DNA from: a virus
Taxonomy: Duplodnaviria > Caudoviricetes
Virus record (IMG/VR): IMGVR_UViG_3300014039_000028
Location: 14,387 to 78,386 of that record
DNA: 64,000 nucleotides
Reading direction: 5' to 3' (one strand)
Position numbers and translations under genes: made by a program. Of this stretch, positions 1,924-44,120 are shown one piece after another. Within the stretch, counting starts at the first letter, position 1. Every line of letters begins with the position of its first letter. The notes under the pieces were generated by a model, which was not told the DNA's origin, ran no database searches, and saw only the letters and a program-made list of their open reading frames with translations.

Positions 1924-2352
1924 ATGAGCGTTTTACAAGATTATTTGCAGATTCGCGGATTGCTAGATTCGGCCATTGAAAATGCACTAAGAGGCAGCGT
2001 TGCTGATGGGCTAAAAGAAGCAATACAGAAAAAGGCAAAAGAAAATGTTTACAGCTACCCTGCGTCTCCATCCGCTATGTACAAGCGGCGCGAAGAAAAT
2101 GGAGGTCTCATTGATGACACGACCATGCTGACCACCGTCGATGGATTGACACTGACACTGGAAAACACAGCAGAGCCGCAGCACGCCGACGGCATTGATC
2201 TCACTCCAATCGTCGAGGAGGGCGATCCTGCTTGGCATCAGCCCTTTGCTCGTCCCTTTATGGATGAAGCGCGAGACGAATACGTGGACGATGGAAAGGC
2301 CGACAGCGACATTGCAAAAGAACTAAAAGCTATGGGATTTACGGTTTCTTAG
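1924..2352 (+). CDS. Putative tail component, HK97 gp10-like
   Basis: RBS GGAGGG before ATG 1924; ...PFARPFMDEARDE motif resembles gp10-like proteins. Confidence 0.45.
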   Translation: MSVLQDYLQIRGLLDSAIENALRGSVADGLKEAIQKKAKENVYSYPASPSAMYKRREENGGLIDDTTMLTTVDGLTLTLENTAEPQHADGIDLTPIVEEGDPAWHQPFARPFMDEARDEYVDDGKADSDIAKELKAMGFTVS

Positions 2353-2506
2353 GCGGATTTGCAGGCTTTGGAGAGGACTTTTTCTTGGTTTTCGAGGGCT
2401 TATCAGTCCGCAGCATAGCAGCAAGCGCCCACTGCTGGCCGAGAGACATACCTCCTTGACCTTGCGCGAAAGCTTGAGAGGCCATTTGGGATTCATCCCA
2501 ATTCAT
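2339..2506 (-). CDS. 55-aa antisense moron peptide (MNWDESQMASQAFAQGQGGMSLGQQWALAAMLRTDKPSKTKKKSSPKPANPPKKP); not in ORF track
   Basis: Hand-translated; RBS AAAGGGAG; own consensus promoter; internal second RBS AAGGAGGT-ATG. Confidence 0.65.
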   Translation of the reverse strand: MNWDESQMASQAFAQGQGGMSLGQQWALAAMLRTDKPSKTKKKSSPKPANPPKKP

Positions 2507-2529
2507 GATATCAACTCCCTTCTATATAG

Positions 2530-2558
2530 ATTATACACTATGCGCCGTTATGTTGCAA
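2530..2558 (-). promoter_or_regulatory. Sigma-A promoter of the antisense moron
   Basis: TTGCAA-17 bp-TATAAT on the minus strand. Confidence 0.7.
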
Positions 2559-2575
2559 GCGGAGGATAACGCCGA

Positions 2576-5500
2576 ATGAGCACAATAGTACAGATACAAG
2601 TAAATGTAAATGACGCAAAAGCGATAGCCTCGCTGACCAACATAGAGAACATCGGCAAAAGACTGAGCAGCACACCGATAGAGATAAAGGTCAACGCCGG
2701 GGCTGTTGACAAAGTCTCAAAGTCGGTTATCCAGCTGGCAAAAGAGCAGACCAAACAGGCTACTGCAAGCGCAAAGCAGGCAGCGGCAGAAGCCAAGGTT
2801 CAGGTCGCGCAGGAAAAAACGAAGCAAACTTCTAACAGACTTGCCGCACAACAAGAGAAAACCGCGCAGTCGGCCAATAGATTGGCTACTGGACAGACCA
2901 AAGCCGCATCCGCAACGCAAAAAGCGGGCACCGAGGCGCAGAAAACTTCGGCGCTGACCGACCTGCTGGGAGACAGCCTTGGCCGTATCGTTGCAAAACA
3001 GGCCGCATGGCAGCTTATAGGCAACGGCATTACCGCTGTAAAGAACTCTTTTGTTGAAGCTCTTTCCACCATGAAAGAGGTCGACAGTGAGCTTGCGACC
3101 GTGCGCAAGGTAACCGGCATGACCAAGGACGAGATGAATGCTCTTGGCGAATCGGCGTATTCCACCGCATCTAAGTACGGCGTTGCAGCAAACGAGTACC
3201 TCCAGAACGTTTCTACTTTCGCCCGTGCAGGTTACAAAGAAGCCGCACAGGGTCTTGGCGAGTTGGCCATAAAGACGCAGCTTGTCGGCGACACGGATCA
3301 GGAGACAGCATCGCAGTTTCTCCTTTCGGCTGATGCAGCGTGGAAATATCACGGCAATGTTGAAAAGCTTTCCCTCGCGCTGGATGAAGCCAACACCATA
3401 GACAACAACTATGCAACATCCATCCAGAAAATAGCTGAAGGCTTGCCAATCGTTGCCAATGTTGCCTCGATGGCAGGAATGTCCATGGAAGAAACCATGG
3501 CCATGCTTGGCACAATCACCGCCACTACGCAGGAGAGCGGTACAAAGGCGGCAACTGCGGCCAGAGCGCTTATTCTCAACATTCTGGGTGACACCACTAC
3601 TGAAATTTCGGATGGTGTAACAGCAACCGAGGAATCTGTACAGTCCCTTAATGGCATACTCCAGAAGTACGCCCCCGACGTTGTCGCTGCGGCAGAGGCC
3701 ACGGGGAAGCTTATAAACCCGATGGAAGCCATCGAGGCGCTGTCAAAGGCGGCAAAGGACGGTTTAATCTCCGAAGCCGATTTGATGCAGATGGTTTCTG
3801 CTCTCGGCGGAAAACTCCGCACGAACCAGCTCCTTGCGCTCCTTGAAAACTTTGATATGTACAAAAGCATGTTGGCTGATATGGGCGTCGCCGCAGGCAG
3901 CGCCGATCAAGAAGTCAGCGTCATGCTCGATACTTGGGACGCAAAGGCAAATATTCTCAAGAACACATGGACTGAGTTCATCTCCAACATGGTCGATACC
4001 AGCCTTATAAAAGGCGCTCTCGATGTCATTACCGGACTTGTCAAGGCTCTTGACAGTGGTTTTGGACACCTCGTGATTACCGTAGCTGGCGTAACGGCAA
4101 CCTTTGCCGTACTGAGCAGCGGATTAAAAGCGCTAAAAGCTGGAGTAGCTGAGCTTGCCTTGTCACAAGGCCCGTTAGCAGCCGGGATAACGATGACTAC
4201 GGGCGCACTTGATGTATTAACTGGTGCGATGCTTAAAAGCCCGCTGTTTTGGGTAGGGGCTGCCACGGCGGTGATTTACAGCATAGTAAAAGCCGTGGAT
4301 GCGCTTACAGTCACCTATGAAGAGCAGGCACAAATCTTGTCTGACCTTGAATCAGAGTATGAGGCTACCTACGGCGAGGGAACGCGCTTCGACGAACTCA
4401 AGAAGAAGGTTGGCGAACTGACAGTTGCTGAGCAGAATGAATATAACATTCTGAAAATGCGCAACGACGAGGCAGAGCGTCAACTCAAGCTCGCACGTGA
4501 TGCAGAGTACGACAAGTGGATGAATGAAAACTGGAGTAAAAAGACCGCAGTTTCTTCGGACACTTTTAGCAGCAAAGCGGGGCAATCGTCCACTGCTGGT
4601 GCAGACACTGTAAGCAAGTTTAGGAGCGAGTTGGCAGCCGCCCATGACGAATACGCTAAAGGCGAAACTACACTAACCGAGTATAGGAACGCGATCCTCG
4701 ACATTGCGTCAAACTACGACGATCTCTATGACAAGCTTTCCGATTACAAAAAGGATGGCCGCGAGCTCGGCGAGGACGCAGAGAATCTCATTAAAACATA
4801 TGAAGCTGTCGCAAAGCAAGCCAACGATATCGACACTGGCGGAATAGACGCGGAAGCGGATTCCTTCGAGGAAGTAAAGAGCTCGGTCGATGCGGCGACA
4901 GAAGCTTTACAGAGGTACAACGCCGAATTAGAGCAGCTTGGCAACCGGGAAGAAAATGCCAACGCAATCCAGTCTGCATTTAACAAAGCAGTCGAGGATT
5001 TTGGTCAAGGCAAACTCGGCTCGTCTTACATCCGCAGCGTCGTGGATATGATCCTCCCTCCTGATGTATTCCGGGAACTCGGATACAGTTACGAAAAAGG
5101 GATGGACGAAATCCTCAACGGTGTTACTGGTAGAGTTCTTTCGAGCGATAACATAGGGACTGCTTGGTATAACGAACTTCTGGCCGTGCGGGATAGTGGT
5201 GTCCTCGACGGAATTGTCGAGTTCGACGATAGCGGTGCAATAAAAACTATCGCATCCTATAAAAAAGTCGCGGAAGCAATGCAAACGACAGAAGCTTTCG
5301 CTCAGGCGGCAACTGAACACTTGATGTCTCAACAAGATGGGCTTACATTCACCGGTGAACAGGCTGCTAATATAATTGACCAACTCAATGCAAAACTTAA
5401 AGAGAACGGCACGACCGTAAAAGACGGTCAAGCTGGTTTTGAGGCTTTTGTGGATGCATTGTCTTCCGTTACGGGCTTTACCACTGAGGGCACATTGTTC

Positions 5501-36700: not shown

Positions 36701-38895
36701 TCTTTTGGGATTCGCGTACTCGCAGTATTGGCACTGCACTTTATACGTCATCGCGTTCGCACATCCAGTCATCATTTGCTACACCCGACCTTTTGCCCTT
36801 TTGGCGGATTGGGCAGCGGCATCCAATGAGAGACGAATTTGTTGAGTGCCCAGCCTTTTGAGATTTGAATTTCACAATCCGAACCTGCCATATCCGGGAG
36901 ATATGCCAGAACACGCTCGTCCTCCTCTGGCAGTTTGTCCTCGACTTTTGTCCACTTGGACGCGGGGGCGTCAGCATCCTCCTCAAGCCTCTGCATCCAC
37001 TCGCACTCAGATGGCTCGCAAGGTTGGTCCGAGTGAAACTCATTGCACATATTGCAGATGATCGTCTTGGCTGTTTCGATTTTCGTATGTCCGTTCATTC
37101 TTTTCCCTCCATAAGTTACAACTGAGTCTGTTGTTGGAGGCGGCGGAATACTCGACGCATCGCTCCATCCAGTCGGTTGATATCCCCCGCTTCGGCGTTC
37201 GATGTCTGGCCGCTGAACACCACATTTTCTTCTATAAATGCAGTCACTCGTCATCTTCTACCTCCGCTATCCACATACTTATTTCTTTCTCTGCCGCGTC
37301 TAATGCCTCGTCCAGTGTCCGCCCTTTCCATTCATAATGCCGCGCGGGGCCGAGCACGTAGCAATGAAGACTGATTACATACCAGTTGGGAGCGTCCTCT
37401 CCGCTTCCCGCCAGTTCAAAGTAGTCCGGGAACTCAAACAGCAGCTCCATGTGCCCCTCATACGTCTTACAACAGGGGTCTATTTCGAGCGCTTTCTTTA
37501 TTCCAGCCATAACTTTCCGACGCAGCGCAAGGAATCTCTTATACGATTTTTCCACTTAGATTCTCACCTCACCGCTTAATCAATTTCAGCCACAAGGCAT
37601 CCGCGATTGAGAACAGCGCCCATATTCCGAAAAATTCGGTTTTGGGCTCTACGTCGTTCATGTCATACCAAATTGCCACCAAGAAAAACAAAAGACTCAT
37701 CCGCAGTCCCTCTTCACTCATAAAGCCCAAGACTCACAAACAGTCTCTTGGCTTCCTCGTCATACGCCTTATAATCCGGGTACTTGTCCAAAATGTCAGC
37801 GTACTTACACTTCTTCTGTCCCCCACATGCCTTGCGGTCTTTGCAATATACGCAGCCGTATTTCTTCTGCGAGTCCGGATTAACACCTACATACCCCTCC
37901 GAGCTGCCCAAGCCCTCGCGCGAGCCTTTTCGCTCTCTGGTACATCCGCAGTTTCTGACTCGTCCCGTGCGGATATCATATCCACGGCGGACAAATGTTT
38001 TCCCGCATATCCGACAGCGGCAGTTGAAATACGCACCCAAAGACCCACCGGAGCGCTTTTCGTTGTAACTCAGGACTTCTATGTCGTGGAATGTCTGCCC
38101 TGATATGTCGATGATTTTCATGTTGTCTCCTCTATTGTCTCAAGCAAAGCGATCAGCCCGAAAAACGACCTCGGATTTATCCCAGTCTTTTCCTTTGCCG
38201 CTGTCAAATGAAATTCCACTGTGGAGTTGTTCATGTTCAGCGCTCTGGCCGTAGCTGTGGCGTTCATATTGTTTTCGGCATAAGTGCAAATTACGCGCTT
38301 GCACTTCTCGGTTAATGGCCGTGGGCATTTGTCCATTCGGCTCCCCTCCTCTCTGCATAATGCGAATATTTATTCATCCGGTAAAAATTCTGCGGGGCAT
38401 ATCATATTTGTCTCTATCAGGAACGCCAATTTGAACTGTGGTACGGTAAAAATGCCCTCTTCCACAAGAACTTCTACACCGTGCTTCAGCGCTTCTCCAT
38501 CAATCACGGTTCCTTGCGGATAGCCAATAAACTGCGTGACAAAACGCTTTACCGCTTCAAATTGTTCGCTCGAAGCCCACACGATAGTCCCTCACTTCCG
38601 ACATGTCTACAACTCTCAACCTTGCTTGGTAATGGAAATCACCAGAACCGTCCTGCCAGAATCTCCACTCTATGAAACGGCTAAGCTCCTTGGATGTAAC
38701 GAGCTTTTCTACGAGATCCTTCTCGCCGAACTCCTTTATAATATCTTCGCCGAAGGTTTCCATCTCTTCGCGTGAATATATCCTTGTAGCTACGAAAGTT
38801 TCAGGCCGCAAATTGATCCGAACAACTTTAGGCGGCGGCAGTTGTTCTGTATACCCACCCAGTTTGCGTATGATCCAGCGCTTAATTTTGTTCAT
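33763..38895 (-). other. Run of about 15 small hypothetical genes, many Cys-rich; includes AP2/HNH-adjacent-like 37714-38121 and PucR/CdaR-HTH-like 38118-38336
   Basis: Overlapping stop/start ORFs in the track; functions not assignable. Confidence 0.55.
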
Positions 38896-39595
38896 CGTTC
38901 ATTCTCCCCTCCATCACAAAAAGACTTTGCTGTGCCGTATATTCGTTGAAGCGCTCTTCTTGAAGCTTGAAATACGTTGGGTCTATTTCGCAGCCCACGA
39001 AATCAAGTCCTGCGTCATAGGCCGCGATTCGGCTGCTGCCGCTTCCGAGATGCGTGTCAAGGATCCGGTCTCCGGGTTTCGCGTAGTTTTTGAAAATCCA
39101 CCGATAGAGTGCGACTGCCTTTTGCGTAGGATGAATCTGTTTCTCGTTCAGCTTTTTGTTCCCCTGCTGAATCGTGCCCTCTTCAACGCTCTTCCCTTGC
39201 AGCATTCCATTCCACATGAAGCGGAATATCCTGACGCTGGTAAAGAGGTCTGTCGCGGCCAGCTCACAGTCGGAAAAACTGCTTGAGGAATTGCACTTGT
39301 CCCACACGATTCGCCCCGGCGCGAAGCGATAGTCAAAGTAATTGCATCCCCACACTATGTAATGCTTGGCAACGCGCCGAAGTTCCTCAAAATATTCCGC
39401 GTTTGGAATGTCCCACTGTGGGGAGATGGGATAATCCCTGTGAACGCCGATTTTGCTGACACGGCTCCCGTAATAGCCGCGCCTTTCCGGTCCTGAGAAA
39501 TATGGCGGGTCAACTACTGCGAGGTCGAACGCCTTGTCAGGAACTGTGCGCATGTACTCCATGCAGTCGCAGTTGACTACTATGCTTTCGCTCAT
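38882..39595 (-). CDS. DNA amino-methyltransferase (N6-A/N4-C, beta class)
   Basis: VVDPPY (motif IV), IHPTQK, ILDTHLGSGS (motif I). Confidence 0.9.
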   Translation of the reverse strand: MSESIVVNCDCMEYMRTVPDKAFDLAVVDPPYFSGPERRGYYGSRVSKIGVHRDYPISPQWDIPNAEYFEELRRVAKHYIVWGCNYFDYRFAPGRIVWDKCNSSSSFSDCELAATDLFTSVRIFRFMWNGMLQGKSVEEGTIQQGNKKLNEKQIHPTQKAVALYRWIFKNYAKPGDRILDTHLGSGSSRIAAYDAGLDFVGCEIDPTYFKLQEERFNEYTAQQSLFVMEGRMNDEQN

Positions 39596-39607
39596 TTCAT
39601 CACTCCC

Positions 39608-40138
39608 TTACACTTCATCTCCCCATGCGTCCCAGCCGGGGAATCGTTCTCTCGCAAATATCTCTATGCGCGGCTCATAGCTCACCAGTTCTATCATGCG
39701 GCGCATTTCTTCGGGCTTGCGGCTGTGCACCGTTTTGGGTGCATAGAATCCCGTTTTTCCCTGACAGCGTTTACCTTCGGGAGAAACTTTGTAAGGCAAG
39801 CGCTTTTTCGTCGTGGCAAATATGCAATGTTCAGTCAGTCCTCTGTAATACTGTCCCAAGCCCTGCTGGTTTTTCATCCACGTTATCGTTGTCACATACT
39901 CGAATCCCCACGCCTTCACGCATTCAATGGCGGCGGGTAGATAATTATTGGTAGCCCAGCAGTACAGATGGCACCCGTCAGGGGCTGCAAGTTGCATGAC
40001 CGGGAGCGCCTTGATCTCGGCAACAGACATCAAACTGTAGTGCTTGTCCGCTCCGCGCTTGATTTTGCCGCCTCCCCGCTCTGGCCACGGCGGGTCTATG
40101 TAGATTGTGCGGTATTTGTCACTTGGAAAGTCGTTCAT
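39608..40138 (-). CDS. MT-A70 family adenine methyltransferase
   Basis: YRTIYIDPPW, HYSLMS, HSRKPEE, RIEIFARERFPGWDAWGDE. Confidence 0.9.
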   Translation of the reverse strand: MNDFPSDKYRTIYIDPPWPERGGGKIKRGADKHYSLMSVAEIKALPVMQLAAPDGCHLYCWATNNYLPAAIECVKAWGFEYVTTITWMKNQQGLGQYYRGLTEHCIFATTKKRLPYKVSPEGKRCQGKTGFYAPKTVHSRKPEEMRRMIELVSYEPRIEIFARERFPGWDAWGDEV

Positions 40139-40256: not shown

Positions 40257-40861
40257 TCATGTTGAACTGTCCTCCTCAGTTTTAGGGTACAAATCTTCCA
40301 AATCCCCCGCGAGACGGTGATACTCGCTGTTTTCCTCGATTTCAGCCTTGAGACGGTTCGCCAAATCCTCAATTCGCGTCTGTTGTTTGAGCAGTGTAGT
40401 CACGCACTCATCGAGATATTGCGCAGCGGCAAGATAGCCGCACTTGCCTATCGCTCTTCCATCCTTGCCATCTCTAAGAGCTTCCTCTTTAAGGTCAGCA
40501 AGGAACCTCACCAGAGTTGCCATACGATTTGGTGCATAATTACTCACTTTTCATTTCCCTCCTCATAATTGTCTTTCAAGTATCTGTTTCGTCTGCAACA
40601 GGAGCATTTCTGGTGCTTTTGCTTATTCTTGCAAGTACCGCAACCGCCGATAGTAATACTGTCTGCGAGAAGCGGATTGTTCGCTATGAAATTCGCTTCC
40701 AGTAGCTGGATTGTGTTCAGAAGAGCGCTGTCCATATACGGACTGTCATTCGTCATTCGGTTAAGGCGGCACTTACCTAAAAAATCCAGCAAGTGGTCAA
40801 AATTGATATACCTGACTGCGTTGCCGTATAACTTCACGCGCTCCTTCTCTTTCCTTGTCAT
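40257..40861 (-). other. Two small hypothetical genes (40257-40547, 40544-40861)
   Basis: Coupled ORFs. Confidence 0.5.
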
Positions 40862-43125
40862 TAGCGCACCACGGCTCCTCTCAAAAATTCATCTAAGTCA
40901 CCGGATATACCGGCATCCTCGTCTCCGAAATGTCTCTTTACGACAGCAATCGGGAACTGCTCAATTTCGCTTGCCCAACGGCAGTTTTCCGCGCCGTGGA
41001 TTTCAGCCCAGCACAGCGGAAACCCGCCTATACCGTCGAACAGTGAACCAAGCGTCGCGTCCGCCGGTAGATACTCGCTTATGCGGCGCAGCAGCCATTT
41101 CCAGAACGGGAGAGCGATGCTGTTGCCAAGGGCTTTATATTTAGGCGCATCAGATTCTTTATGTACGCGTCCTTTCTCATCTGTCCACTCACCTATGTCA
41201 ACCCATCCGTCCGGGAATCCCTGAAGTCTGGTACATTCCAGCGGGGTCAGTCTACGCACTGCGCCTGACTGTCGGCATATATTGTTGAGATTGAGACTTG
41301 AGCCACCAGATTCTTTAGCTTGAAGCGTACCGTTCACATCGCCGTTCTCCGTAAAATTTCTGCAATCTACAGCAGCTGAAAGAACATAAGTTGTTGAATC
41401 CTCGCGAAACGAGTCCTTTCCTGAGGCGCGTAAGGTGTGTGCTACGAGCATATCGTTATAAGCGTCCTGCCCGTTGTAGCTTCCAGCGTGTGCTCCCGGT
41501 GAGAGTGTTCCGGTTACCTGTTGATATGTAAGTGGGACTTGATTTCCGCCAGTTCCCATCCTTGCTTGTAGGCTCGGTACAACCTCGCCGCACTCTCTTA
41601 TGACATCATTCGCATGGCTCATATCCAATATTGCAGGAACTTGATTCGTGCCGCTTGAAACCGCTGATAATGTAGGTGAGGTCTCTTCTGCATAACCTAT
41701 ACTGCCCGCTTTCGCACCTTGTCCAGACTTAAACGCTGCCACTATATGCTTGTCTGCCACGGTGATGGTCGGCGCAGGATCACCATCCTTGCCGATTCCA
41801 AGACCGTTCCCGCTACCGTCGTTCTTGCGGGTATCTCCTCCGCCCTTGAATCGCGTCGCTTTGTCGTTTATTGGGATGACTACCGATTCCGCGCCGTGCT
41901 GTTGGGTGCTTGCGACTGCTGGATAAGTGCCTGCTTCAACTGTTCCGGCAGGTCTTTCCCTCTGCTTTCCGCTCTCCGGAGTATCCCCTGACAGGCTGCA
42001 CGGCTCAAATAATATTTCGTGGGCGGTGCTTCCTCCAAAATCTGCGACAACCGAGATTCTACTGTTGGATAGTTGAACGTTCCAAGTCCGTAGAATGTCA
42101 TGCCCGACCAGTTGAGCAAGGCTCTTTCCATTTGCGGATTCCTCATTCATATACCCCCTTATCACGGTTAAAACAGATTTTGCCCAGCCGAAGAAGTTCG
42201 GCGCATCGGGATTCGTCTCCATCGCACAGTTTAGATAAGCTCCAGTGACATTTAGCGTGCGCAGCAGGGTTTGGAAACAAGTGCAGATTCGACGGATCGT
42301 TATTTCGCTTGTTGCAGTCGATGTGATGAACTCGTTCTGAAGAAGTGAGTGCGCGTCCAAGGTGTTTCTCAACCACGCTCCTATGGATATATTTTCTTCT
42401 GCAATTTTCGATGACGTACTCGTACCCTCTGTCATCTGCGCGAACAAGTCCATCTGGATTTCGCCAACTCTTGAACCCAAGTTTTCTTGCTCTTTTGGAT
42501 AATTCGCTTCCATCTCGTCCAAGAAGCGTTGCCACCTCTTTATGGTCTCTTCCTTTTGAAGCGAGAATAATTTTATCCTCTTCTGGAGTCCATCTTCGGA
42601 TAGCCACTTTGCGCGGCACTCCGATTTTTTCGGCGCGATGCCTAATCGCGCACACGCTTCGACCCAGTCTATCAGCAATATCTCTGTGAGGCATTGAAGC
42701 ATAATGCTGTCTGATATAATTGTCCTCTTGCTGAGTAAATAGTGGATGTTTGCCCATACTATCCCAATTCTCCTTCTTCTTTGCGGAACGCCGCAATACT
42801 GCGCATCGTGAATCTGCGGGTCTGGAATAAAGCCAATCTCAGTCATCATATCCAAGGCAGCTACAAAATCCTCTCCATTATTGCTACTCAACATTCCGGG
42901 CACATTCTCAAACACCACAAATTTAGGGTACTTTCCTCTGGTCGATGAATACATCTCGCTGATTACCCTAACAGCTTCAATGTATAGACCAGAACGATTC
43001 CCTGCTAGTCCCATACGCCTCCCAGCGATACTCAAATCCTGACAAGGCGAACCAAAGGTGATGACATCTACCGGCTCTATTTCAGCGCCGTTTATCTTCG
43101 TTATATCTCCTAAATGTCTCACCAA
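40861..43125 (-). CDS. C5-cytosine DNA methyltransferase alpha subunit, circularly permuted, with a 237-codon insertion
   Basis: FGSPCQDLS (IV), FENVPG (VI), VPQRRRR (VIII), RRLTPLEC, YKALGNS (X), then LFDGIGGF (I) and WASEIE (II) at the C-terminus. Confidence 0.9.
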   Translation of the reverse strand: MVRHLGDITKINGAEIEPVDVITFGSPCQDLSIAGRRMGLAGNRSGLYIEAVRVISEMYSSTRGKYPKFVVFENVPGMLSSNNGEDFVAALDMMTEIGFIPDPQIHDAQYCGVPQRRRRIGIVWANIHYLLSKRTIISDSIMLQCLTEILLIDWVEACARLGIAPKKSECRAKWLSEDGLQKRIKLFSLQKEETIKRWQRFLDEMEANYPKEQENLGSRVGEIQMDLFAQMTEGTSTSSKIAEENISIGAWLRNTLDAHSLLQNEFITSTATSEITIRRICTCFQTLLRTLNVTGAYLNCAMETNPDAPNFFGWAKSVLTVIRGYMNEESANGKSLAQLVGHDILRTWNVQLSNSRISVVADFGGSTAHEILFEPCSLSGDTPESGKQRERPAGTVEAGTYPAVASTQQHGAESVVIPINDKATRFKGGGDTRKNDGSGNGLGIGKDGDPAPTITVADKHIVAAFKSGQGAKAGSIGYAEETSPTLSAVSSGTNQVPAILDMSHANDVIRECGEVVPSLQARMGTGGNQVPLTYQQVTGTLSPGAHAGSYNGQDAYNDMLVAHTLRASGKDSFREDSTTYVLSAAVDCRNFTENGDVNGTLQAKESGGSSLNLNNICRQSGAVRRLTPLECTRLQGFPDGWVDIGEWTDEKGRVHKESDAPKYKALGNSIALPFWKWLLRRISEYLPADATLGSLFDGIGGFPLCWAEIHGAENCRWASEIEQFPIAVVKRHFGDEDAGISGDLDEFLRGAVVR
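41880..42146 (-). CDS. Nested EcoHK31I-type methyltransferase beta subunit (alternative frame)
   Basis: SRLSQILE...KYYLSRAACQGILRRAESRGKDLP (motif IX); ATG overlaps the HNH stop. Confidence 0.75.
   Translation of the reverse strand: MRNPQMERALLNWSGMTFYGLGTFNYPTVESRLSQILEEAPPTKYYLSRAACQGILRRAESRGKDLPEQLKQALIQQSQAPNSTARNR
42143..42757 (-). CDS. Nested HNH endonuclease with two N-terminal Myb/SANT-like repeats (alternative frame)
   Basis: FTQQED / WTPEED repeats; VHHIDCNKRNNDPSNL...H..CH; RBS AAGGAG. Confidence 0.85.
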   Translation of the reverse strand: MGKHPLFTQQEDNYIRQHYASMPHRDIADRLGRSVCAIRHRAEKIGVPRKVAIRRWTPEEDKIILASKGRDHKEVATLLGRDGSELSKRARKLGFKSWRNPDGLVRADDRGYEYVIENCRRKYIHRSVVEKHLGRALTSSERVHHIDCNKRNNDPSNLHLFPNPAAHAKCHWSLSKLCDGDESRCAELLRLGKICFNRDKGVYE

Positions 43126-43173
43126 AAACCACCTCCTTCATGCCAGCGCGAGTGCGTCTGGCTCTTTGGTGCT

Positions 43174-43202
43174 GGGATGGTAGCACCCGTGTCAAGCGCA
43201 AA
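43174..43202 (-). promoter_or_regulatory. Compressed promoter-like motif A (TTGACA-N7-TACCAT)
   Basis: TTTGCGCTTGACAcgggtgcTACCATCCC upstream of the MTase operon. Confidence 0.55.
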
Positions 43203-43360
43203 CGAACCAGATGGCGCAGAACTGCGACGTTGTTTTGTGCAAGTATCACAAAATTTCAAGCTTAATGAACGTAGAAAAGCAGCCCTTTCAATTTGAAAAG
43301 GCTGTTTTTTTCGTATACCTATACAAATTTTGATGTTTTGGCGATTCCCAAGCGCAAAAA

Positions 43361-43386
43361 TGCGCTTGACACGCCGTGTATCATCC
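43361..43386 (+). promoter_or_regulatory. Compressed promoter-like motif B (TTGACA-N7-TATCAT)
   Basis: TGCGCTTGACAcgccgtgTATCATCC upstream of the sigma-factor operon. Confidence 0.55.
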
Positions 43387-43410
43387 TTGCACCGAAAAAG
43401 AAAGAAGCGG

Positions 43411-44120
43411 ATGCCTATGCAGGAGGCCGAGCTTAAAGCCGCGGCAGTCGGCATACTCACATATCTGGCGATTGCAAATGAGGAGACCACGCGGCACAGC
43501 GGAGAGGCGGCGGAAATTATGGAGTTTGACGCGCCATACAATCCATCCGCGTTCAAACTGGCGATGCAGTATCTCGCGCGGATGGACATGGAAGAAACGG
43601 AGGTGGAGTTATGGAAGCGGTAATAATACTGCTTATCTGTACGGTTATCCCTGTAACAGTTGGTTGCGCGATGCACATCAAATTTGCGCACGAACGGTGG
43701 GTTTCTTATTTAGAGCAGAAATCAAGTTACAAACATATAACGGTCTCTCCTGAAATTTTCAAAACAATGCTTTACACCCTCTCCTATGAAATGAGCGCTT
43801 TGCCTTACGGCATAATGTGGCATAGACCTACATCACGACGCCATGGGAGCGAGCCTATCTTGGTGTACGGTAGAAATCGGCTCGAACAAGAGCAGATGAA
43901 CCTTGCTCTGACTGTATACCTCGATAAGCAAGCAAAAGCGCGGGAGAGACGCAAAGAACTCGCCAACGATGCAACTACTGATTCGTTAAAGCAAGTCCAA
44001 GACGACCTCCAACGTATCATCGACGGCAATCTCCGCGCCGCGCAGGAGGCCGCGCGGAAAAATCAAGAGATTATGGAGCGTCTATCAGTAACAACCGCTA
44101 CACACGGAGGCGCACCATGA
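43411..44120 (+). other. Two hypothetical genes (43411-43623; 43611-44120 with N-terminal TM)
   Basis: First genes after motif B. Confidence 0.5.

Follow-up and report, generated by a model that had tools for sequence, protein, structure and literature searches.

In Aeromonas phage Aeh1, the free-standing homing endonuclease gene mobE splits the host gene nrdA, and the products of the two ORFs assemble. A related arrangement was found in the 64,000-nt stretch of phage DNA analysed here (the window), where an HNH endonuclease gene lies inside a C5 DNA methyltransferase (MTase) gene. As with nrdA/mobE, a homing endonuclease gene without intron or intein sits within a conserved gene whose function would be kept unspliced. 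However, the Aeh1 host gene is cut into two ORFs, whereas the main ORF in the window is uncut and only a small beta gene is restarted.

Out-of-frame hidden HNH genes were described in the DNA methylases of the actinobacteriophages ShiLan and Pacc40 in 2023 and 2025 (PMC9957025, PMC11855218). An earlier note on the window, which knew of no described element of this type, is outdated in that respect. In ShiLan, as in the window, a complete HNH gene occupies another same-strand frame of a phage methylase gene whose own frame is stop-free. Both lack intron and intein signatures, the start of the insert mimics the residues past the insertion site when read in the host frame, and the frame offset is equal (the host frame is the HNH frame +1). 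The proteins differ. ShiLan combines an N6/N4 methylase (gp65, PF01555) with an HNH of the zinc-finger type, whereas the window encodes a C5 MTase and an HNH_3 endonuclease. The window HNH did not match the ShiLan sequence; the two belong to different families but represent the same kind of element. No ribosome-binding site was found for ShiLan, and leaderless initiation was proposed, while the window HNH has a canonical Shine-Dalgarno sequence made from codons of a host motif. ShiLan also has no third-frame ORF, whereas the window cassette restarts an overlapping beta gene, with all three frames coding. Hidden insertion without splicing is thus already published, and the window cassette is a richer version of it, not a new kind.

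A homologous cassette was present in cluster J mycobacteriophages (Thibault gp102-105, Hannaconda gp107, Constella, Yeet, Schatzie and others). The cluster J HNH was 46% identical to the window HNH over 97% of its length, with a beta-prime ORF directly behind it, and the cassette likewise followed the QRRRR of a C5 MTase whose frame was open. The cluster J MTases differ in their standard motif order and in a further frame switch before motifs IX-X. Annotations of these loci varied between one methylase, an HNH protein plus a hypothetical protein, and 'coding region not determined'. We found no paper interpreting the cluster J cassette, which is known from GenBank annotation only, and no description in the literature of a beta restart or a three-frame layout.

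M.EcoHK31I depends for its activity on a small beta polypeptide read from an alternative frame within the alpha gene (PMC2836561). The window beta-prime resembles the beta chains of M.EcoHK31I and M.EaeI in being small and encoded in this way. The nearest named Atlas cluster to the 88-aa window ORF was the 'EaeI methyltransferase beta subunit family' (score 0.75), which is a lead only. The M.EcoHK31I beta chain is said to carry motif IX, whereas in the window motif IX (RRLTPLECTRLQGFP) is in the main MTase frame and the beta frame has LSQILE..KYYLS.

The methyltransferase locus and its insert

All features of the locus were on the minus strand. The main ORF (alpha frame, 40861-43125) encoded a 754-aa C5 MTase matching PF00145 (8.8e-42) and TIGR00675 (1.7e-35). 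The earlier note had read this frame as open through the insert, and it contained 0 stops. The motifs were ordered IV, VI, VIII, target-recognition (TRD) modules, IX, X, I, II. Motifs I, IV (PCQ), VI (ENV), VIII (QRRRR), IX and X were all present, with invariant residues in the alignment. Motifs I-II (LFDGIGGF...ASEIE, 40864-41055) lay at the C-terminal end of the protein. This circular permutation is context for the locus and lies outside the cassette.

The insert spanned 711 nt (237 codons, 42061-42771). The note had placed AGAAT repeats at its two boundaries and a contiguous motif VIII after its removal, and both were seen. The repeats were at 42767-42771 and 42056-42060, and in-silico deletion of 42061-42771 left a 517-aa ORF reading QRRRRISVVADFGG, which is also what insert-free MTase homologues read. 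The insertion site, directly after motif VIII (QRRRR), was common to phage MTases and to those of metagenome-assembled genomes (MAGs) from several phyla. A syntenic phage (L002) was without the cassette. Among the MTase relatives compared, we found no near-identical pair of filled and empty alleles with closely matching flanks, so recent homing is not demonstrated. The window MTase was closest to two gut-type insert-bearing alleles (82% and 63%); beyond those two, it was no closer to insert-bearing MTases than to insert-free ones. The idea that the N-terminal catalytic half travelled together with the cassette from a distant MTase lineage was not supported by similarity.

The HNH gene (42143-42757) encoded 204 aa and a stop from its own ATG, 2 nt downstream of (one nt behind) the MTase frame. 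The note's 204-aa HNH protein with an intact motif in another same-strand frame was borne out by matches to Pfam HNH_3 (PF13392, 2.2e-10) and to several HNH PHROGs, including phrog_323 (8e-21). Two helix-turn-helix-like repeats preceded the HNH_3 core, in which the HH...N...H residues were invariant. The repeats themselves, which the note had called Myb-like, were real (33% mutual identity, E 4e-6), but the Pfam labels for them, Myb and sigma-70 region 4, were weak. A PDB search with the HNH sequence gave no significant match.

Both internal start signals coincided with codons of an overlapping gene. The QRRRR codons of motif VIII (CAA AGA AGA AGG AGA, 42769-42783) contained an AAGGAG Shine-Dalgarno sequence at 42770-42775, 12 nt before the HNH ATG, in agreement with the note's proposal that the Arg codons supply the ribosome-binding site. 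Motif VIII contained AGG Arg codons of this kind, giving an AGGAG-type Shine-Dalgarno, in 12 of 14 insert-bearing alleles vs 0 of 7 insert-free ones. The third nested ORF, whose start had been claimed to overlap the HNH stop, was likewise found. This 88-aa ORF (beta-prime, 41880-42146) began at an ATG overlapping the HNH TGA as ATGA. Its first approximately 29 codons (42061-42146) were encoded by the cassette, and the remainder overlapped the MTase frame downstream of the insert. The beta-prime Shine-Dalgarno was formed by conserved C-terminal GVY codons of the HNH gene, and 16 of 18 lineages had a similar motif 9-12 nt upstream of the beta-prime ATG. The ATG, an MRDxQ leader and the Shine-Dalgarno were conserved in 16-18 lineages.

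Openness and conservation in the three frames

The cassette was found within C5 MTases of about 19 diverged lineages (HNH identity 33-63%), which included gut phages, cluster J mycobacteriophages and MAGs of several phyla. Six of these lineages were scored for openness, and retrieval by HNH alone brought 13 further loci, in all of which the cassette followed motif VIII and the MTase frame had 0 stops. A count of stops in the MTase frame of relatives, a point raised in the earlier note, gave 0 in every intact C5-MTase copy across the approximately 19 lineages. The remaining frame contained 5-21 stops across these lineages, with 15 in the window. The six scored lineages had 0 stops in the MTase frame vs 10-19 in the other frame, and six free-standing HNH relatives had 8-21 stops in the equivalent of the MTase frame. 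One further copy (L140) showed decay in both frames.

The probability of an open MTase frame was calculated with the HNH protein held fixed and its synonymous codons randomised. For the window, it was 1.1e-4 with uniform codons and 1.7e-5 with the codon usage of the locus itself, so the rough 1e-5 of the note was about right. The six lineages gave values of 1e-6 to 2e-3 each. The open frame nevertheless lacked conservation of sequence. Between lineages, amino acid identity was 0.42-0.61 in the HNH frame, approximately 0.30 in the MTase frame and approximately 0.28 in the unused, stop-filled frame. Variable sites within one lineage fell 14/12/39 on the three HNH codon positions, and within-lineage changes in the MTase frame were approximately 1 synonymous to 3 non-synonymous, as in the neutral expectation.

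Downstream of the insert, the beta core (LSQILE...KYYLS...ACQGILRRAE.RGK.LP..L..AL, 41925-42050) was conserved in the beta frame, while the MTase frame over the same segment (VADFGG..EILFE..) was merely open. Mean identity over the core reached 0.58 for the beta frame, compared with 0.31 for the MTase frame and 0.28 for the third frame, and all 28 pairs showed higher conservation in the beta frame than in the MTase frame. As to frame-specific selection, which the note had proposed to check, the HNH gene and the beta core were conserved in sequence, and the MTase frame was only open. Judged by these comparisons, the three-frame layout is under selection. Across the insert the MTase frame is selected for openness only, not for sequence, and the HNH frame and the downstream beta core are under purifying selection.

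Insert-free relatives already contained an overlapping +1-frame beta gene spanning motifs VI-VIII. A native beta ORF of 126-131 codons with the same start was found inside annotated MTases of Streptococcus and Ruminococcus phages. Taken alone, this native ORF was only modestly improbable by chance, with an openness probability of 0.004-0.28 per gene. An MRDxQ-like beta-prime ORF was present in all HNH-retrieved loci except L035. A beta start supplied by the cassette, as the note suggested, fitted 18 of the 19 lineages scanned, the leader of L035 being different. A search with a beta profile recovered 4715 representative proteins, and the beta domain stood at the head of many proteins of 250-620 aa. 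Searches of Pfam, NCBIfam and the PDB with the beta core or the 88-aa ORF gave no match, including to solved C5 MTases. The segment LSQILE..KYYLS may resemble the one following motif VIII of canonical enzymes.

Two further ideas about the beta frame were considered. One held that the 3' end of the cassette is a degenerate target duplication, with the beta-prime leader derived from the native segment before the core. It was rejected: against a profile of 62 native sequences the best real leader scored 0.4 bits, and shuffled sequences reached 7.7. The other was a +1 frameshift at the AGA/AGG Arg codons joining alpha to beta, which is inapplicable to the insert-bearing allele because the insert separates alpha and beta.

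Alternative explanations

Group I introns of phages frequently harbour HNH genes and lie within conserved motifs. The insert could accordingly be a self-splicing intron, of group I or another type, with an HNH ORF and an MTase frame that is open incidentally. Read in the MTase frame, the insert opens with residues similar to those past the insertion site (GIVWA vs SVVAD), and the ShiLan authors weighed a similar mimicry of post-site residues as a possible sign of an intron (PMC11855218). However, positions 40500-43800 gave no intron family and no ribozyme core in a permissive Rfam scan, and the HNH ORF and beta-prime leader nearly fill the insert, leaving no room for such a core. The host frame of an intron need not be open, but there were 0 stops in about 19 diverged lineages. 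We therefore consider an intron extremely improbable. As for protein splicing, Pfam detected no intein domain in the proteins of the locus, and the insert, read in the MTase frame, begins with G and finishes in ..SRI, whereas an intein would begin with C/S/T and end with HN. Splicing is excluded by sequence arguments only. It is also very unlikely, if slightly less so than an intron, that the insert encodes a selected, functional domain in the MTase frame (an exaptation). A recognisable start pattern (IL.KKT..S....Q.L.EIL) did recur across lineages, but it is a shifted reading of the conserved HNH segment SQEEDDFIR.NY. The identity of the MTase-frame reading was equal to that of the unused frame, its substitutions were neutral-like, and it had no Pfam match.

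Two other explanations are somewhat less remote, though both seem unlikely. The MTase may be made in pieces, comparable to the Aeh1 nrdA/mobE split, with an N-terminal catalytic half, a downstream half that has its own start, and a frame kept open for another reason, possibly ribosomes moving to downstream genes or the avoidance of Rho-dependent polarity. In one locus (L006) a stop ends the alpha frame, and it is the beta frame, started at MRDKQ, that continues across the TRDs and motifs IX, X, I and II; the frequent position of the beta domain at the head of longer proteins, and the frame switch of cluster J phages before motifs IX-X, point the same way. However, the window beta-prime frame ends at 88 codons, and only the open alpha frame gives access to the TRDs and to motifs IX, X, I and II. 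Read-through is thus the sole way of joining the catalytic motifs to the rest in this allele. A 237-residue passenger after motif VIII might even so inactivate the MTase, in which case the openness would serve another role, such as avoiding polarity. The other explanation takes the 88-codon ORF to be a non-functional shadow, so that two frames matter. The ORF had no Pfam, NCBIfam or PDB match, long spurious ORFs were frequent in the window, and the N-terminal motifs of native beta derive from MTase motif VI (ENV) read in a shifted frame, which makes their conservation passive. Set against this are the higher identity of the beta frame over the core in every pair, the retention of the ATG, leader and Shine-Dalgarno, and the occurrence of native beta with the same start and length in distant phages.

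Proposed mechanism and implications

We favour, at a probability of about three in four, a mobile HNH homing-endonuclease cassette that spares its host locus by overlapping coding and not by splicing. This was also the reading of the earlier note, and the approximately 19 lineages with an open host frame, set beside free-standing relatives with a closed one, support it. The cassette would insert into a phage C5 MTase gene immediately past motif VIII (QRRRR), severing the native beta gene and bringing a new start and a leader of approximately 31 aa for its conserved C-terminal core. One transcript would then give rise to three products, MTase, HNH and beta-prime, and we infer that all three proteins are made. 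The MTase would be translated through the 237 codons, which would form a stop-free passenger loop at the junction of the catalytic and target-recognition domains, and it is probably still active. The HNH would initiate at its own ATG via the Shine-Dalgarno from the AGR Arg codons of motif VIII. Beta-prime would initiate on or just before the HNH stop, using the Shine-Dalgarno from the HNH GVY codons, and it may work with the MTase. The HNH would presumably cut or nick insert-free alleles and so spread by homing.

Comparison of the lineages establishes the three-frame architecture, the conserved insertion site and the conserved start signals at the sequence level. We are evenly divided on a stronger version, in which the cassette is a co-adapted three-frame mobile element that targets the single site of C5-MTase loci with a pre-existing alpha/beta overlap, keeps alpha open, substitutes a start, a Shine-Dalgarno and a conserved leader of its own for the severed 5' half of beta, and draws the HNH Shine-Dalgarno from recoded motif VIII Arg codons.

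The hidden homing-endonuclease strategy thus reaches the C5 MTases of human-gut phages and environmental lineages, beyond the N6/N4 methylases of actinophages. To the published cases the locus adds clear ribosome-binding sites, free-standing relatives with closed frames as a natural control, and selection statistics for each frame. Gene callers report such a locus as one long "methylase", losing HNH and beta, or split it arbitrarily, as in the cluster J annotations. The restarted beta gene is absent from Pfam and NCBIfam and yet widespread (4715 representative clusters). A selfish insert can preserve two overlapping host genes, resulting in a stretch that uses all three forward frames. If the stronger version is true, one 0.7-kb insert sustains three translated products, in MAGs assigned to Planctomycetota and Verrucomicrobiota as well as in Actinomycetota and Bacillota phages. 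Were beta essential, imprecise deletion of the cassette would kill the MTase, and the selfish element would thereby be stabilised.

Arrangement of the methyltransferase locus

The virus record, whose closest named relatives are phages of Ruminococcus, Oscillospiraceae and Faecalibacterium from the gut, is 78,386 bases long and complete according to CheckV. On its minus strand, with a divergent promoter region just upstream, the MTase locus heads a row of modification genes. The C5 DNA methyltransferase (MTase) ORF (40861-43125; 754 aa; PF00145, 8.8e-42; TIGR00675, 1.7e-35) stays open across a 204-aa HNH ORF in another same-strand frame (42143-42757; HNH_3, 2.2e-10; phrog_323, 8e-21), the only copy of this HNH in the whole record. 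In the third frame, an 88-codon ORF (beta-prime, 41880-42146) begins with an ATG that overlaps the HNH stop as ATGA. Apart from the Myb-like label, the facts given in the earlier note were all borne out. The AGAAT pentamers (42767-42771 and 42056-42060) are spaced 711 nt apart, and deletion of 42061-42771 in silico restored a contiguous catalytic motif VIII, as had been claimed, in a 517-aa ORF reading QRRRRISVVADFGG, identical to insert-free homologues there. The proposed Myb-like repeats held in part: the internal repeat of the HNH protein is clear (E 4e-6), while the Myb label rests on weak Pfam hits.

The window MTase is circularly permuted, with motif III/IV (HLGDITK..PCQ) first and motifs I-II (LFDGIGGF..ASEIE) last, in a tail at 40864-41055. 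This C-terminal tail was common to 120/120 homologues among the matches listed; in more distant relatives with the same cassette, L009 and L020, the motifs follow the standard order. Downstream in the operon (38882-40138, minus strand) lie two more methyltransferase genes, a 237-aa N6/N4 type (DPPY) and a 176-aa MT-A70-like protein (DPPW), an arrangement syntenic with L002.

The open host frame and its interpretation

The MTase frame corresponds to the HNH frame shifted by +1. With the HNH protein fixed and synonymous codons randomised, the probability of an open MTase frame in the window was 1.1e-4 for uniform codons and 1.7e-5 with the codon usage of the locus, in line with the earlier view that an off-frame insert without stops was unlikely to arise by chance. 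The remaining frame contained 15 stops. The relatives provide stronger evidence than this codon test. About 30 database MTases bearing an insert at this position came out of a protein search; they fall into two lineages, with identities between them of only ~51% (MTase frame) and 61% (HNH frame). Such a sample is biased towards open frames, and therefore further loci were retrieved by HNH alone. All the intact copies found within C5-MTases (those of the window, the L001 lineage, L003, L009, L011, L012, the cluster J mycobacteriophages, L028, L029, L032-L036 and L108-L112) were free of stops in the MTase frame and had 5-21 in the other, with HNH proteins 32-63% identical to that of the window. 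The chance of an open frame, computed for six lineages, was 1e-6 to 2e-3 per lineage. As a natural control, six free-standing genes related to this HNH had 8-21 stops in the frame corresponding to the MTase frame. A decayed embedded cassette in an Acidimicrobiaceae MAG (L140, 2157-3600) had two stops in the MTase frame and a frameshifted HNH; its beta-prime-like ORF was still intact.

Comparison between lineages gave amino-acid identities over the insert of 0.42-0.61 for the HNH frame, ~0.30 for the MTase frame and ~0.28 for the unused frame with its many stops. Among five DNA sequences of the L001 lineage, 14/12/39 variable sites lay at HNH codon positions 1/2/3. The ratio of synonymous to non-synonymous changes was ~1.5 to 1 when read in the HNH frame and ~1 to 3 when read in that of the MTase. 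By these values the HNH is under purifying selection, and the MTase-frame reading of the insert is a passenger selected for openness only. The same MTase-frame figures do not support a functional passenger domain. Where the insert begins, the pattern seen in the MTase frame comes from the conserved HNH stretch SQEEDDFIR.NY, read with a shift.

An intron would give no reason for an open host frame, and the insert has no Rfam match and leaves almost no non-coding room. For an intein, no domain was found in Pfam and the junction residues are wrong. An MTase working as separately translated parts is real for some relatives, L006 being an actual case, but the beta frame of the window ends after 88 codons, so that its target-recognition parts (TRDs) and motifs IX, X, I and II are reachable by read-through only. 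The dual-coded arrangement itself is confirmed, and the proposed mechanism, dual coding instead of splicing, is supported by strong comparative evidence from sequence.

Severing and restart of the beta gene

Because the HNH insertion sits exactly in the overlap of alpha (the main MTase frame) and beta (a small gene in another frame), the native beta ORF is severed. In every lineage a new ORF begins at the HNH stop or a few codons before it and, in all but L035, has a cassette-specific, MRDxQ-like leader of ~31 aa leading into the beta core. An SD-like motif (AAGG, AGGAG or GGAGG), made by the codons for the conserved GVY at the HNH C-terminus, precedes the beta-prime ATG by 9-12 nt in 16/18 lineages. 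The HNH ATG lies 8-14 nt downstream of the motif VIII codons for QRRRR. AGG is among these codons, forming AAGGAG or AGGAGG, in 12/14 insert-bearing alleles and 0/7 insert-free ones (Fisher's exact test, ~3e-4). Judged by these counts and the restart ORFs across lineages, both supplies proposed for the window, of the HNH ribosome-binding site by motif VIII codons and of a coupled beta start by the cassette, are general among insert-bearing alleles.

In a stretch of 42-44 codons downstream of the insert, the conservation pattern was reversed. Mean identity across eight loci was 58% for the third-frame peptide, 31% for the MTase frame and 28% for the remaining frame. The beta peptide (LSQILE..KYYLS..ACQGILRRAE.RGK.LP..L..AL; VADFGG..EILFE.. 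in the MTase frame) was the better conserved in 28/28 pairs which, together with the frequent SD-like motif, makes it unlikely that beta-prime is a shadow ORF.

The beta sequence is not confined to insert-bearing genes. The uninterrupted annotated MTases of Streptococcus phages Javan422 and Javan191 and of two Ruminococcus-type phages contain a +1-frame ORF of 126-131 codons, with the same start and spanning motifs VI-VIII. On direct reading, its N-terminal motifs (e.g. DTW.GKT) are MTase motif VI in a shifted frame and do not count as independent evidence for beta. A beta profile matched 4715 representative proteins at E <= 1e-3. In the best 150 of these, which were 135-620 aa long, beta was mostly N-terminal. 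It thus occurs in two forms, a small protein and the leading part of a "beta-long" subunit to which the TRD and motifs IX and X belong; one lineage has both forms (L001 fused, L006 split). Beta had no match in Pfam, NCBIfam or PDB, and the closest named Atlas cluster was the "EaeI methyltransferase beta subunit family" (weak score, 0.75). A precedent is M.EcoHK31I, whose alpha gene also encodes the beta chain, in an alternative frame (PMC2836561).

Between the close relatives L001 and L006, and also in L002 and L022, a different frame carries the TRD modules. In fused alleles alpha continues and beta is short; in split alleles alpha ends and it is beta that continues, for 470-570 aa. The segments at the joins appear modular, unlike simple homopolymer slips. 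In Faecalibacterium phage FP_Toutatis (L019, 1126-2546), annotated with two separate "DNA-cytosine methyltransferase" CDSs, motifs IV-VI share a frame with the beta C-terminal core, and motif VIII onward occupies another.

Relation to known hidden endonucleases

The earlier note knew of no described element of this type, but the kind is already published. The ShiLan domain was first described in 2023 (PMC9957025) and recognised in 2025 as an out-of-frame HNH in the methylase of a mycobacteriophage, where the host frame stays open and there is neither intron nor intein; the same paper presented Pacc40 as a second case, and no ribosome-binding site was found for ShiLan (PMC11855218). Since ShiLan gp65, when checked, proved to be an N6/N4 methylase (PF01555) with an unrelated zinc-finger HNH and no third-frame ORF, the window cassette is of the same kind but of a different family. 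Its true homologues include the cassettes of cluster J mycobacteriophages (HNH 46% identical, beta-prime ORF directly behind), a region annotated inconsistently in GenBank. Our literature search found no paper on cassette restart of an overlapping beta gene or on a three-frame layout, and these are what the window cassette adds as a variant.

In the cluster J phages Hannaconda (L020) and Thibault (L018), a further MTase frame change precedes motifs IX-X (~2840-2935). Its presence in both suggests a further split or programmed shift rather than sequencing error; Thibault has an extra frame change after motif II. In the relative P0004 (1012 aa), motifs IX and X are separated by a second HNH_3 insertion (residues ~735-915), which is in frame with the MTase and hence read as part of the protein. 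In Mycobacterium phage MKC-IRE-02 (L021), a zinc-finger HNH ORF related to that of ShiLan (2246-2854, plus strand) lies antisense inside an N6/N4 (DPPY) methyltransferase CDS (1941-3494, minus strand) whose frame is open over that stretch. Free-standing HNH or homing-endonuclease genes also lie directly upstream of or near related MTases (L158, 156-656; L025, 434-1048; L001, 2177-2692), one of them overlapping the start of the MTase. Such MTase loci appear to be hot spots for homing-endonuclease genes.

Taken as a whole, three-frame coding is conserved here across phyla, with start signals assembled from the codons of overlapping genes, and the beta gene is widespread and uncurated.
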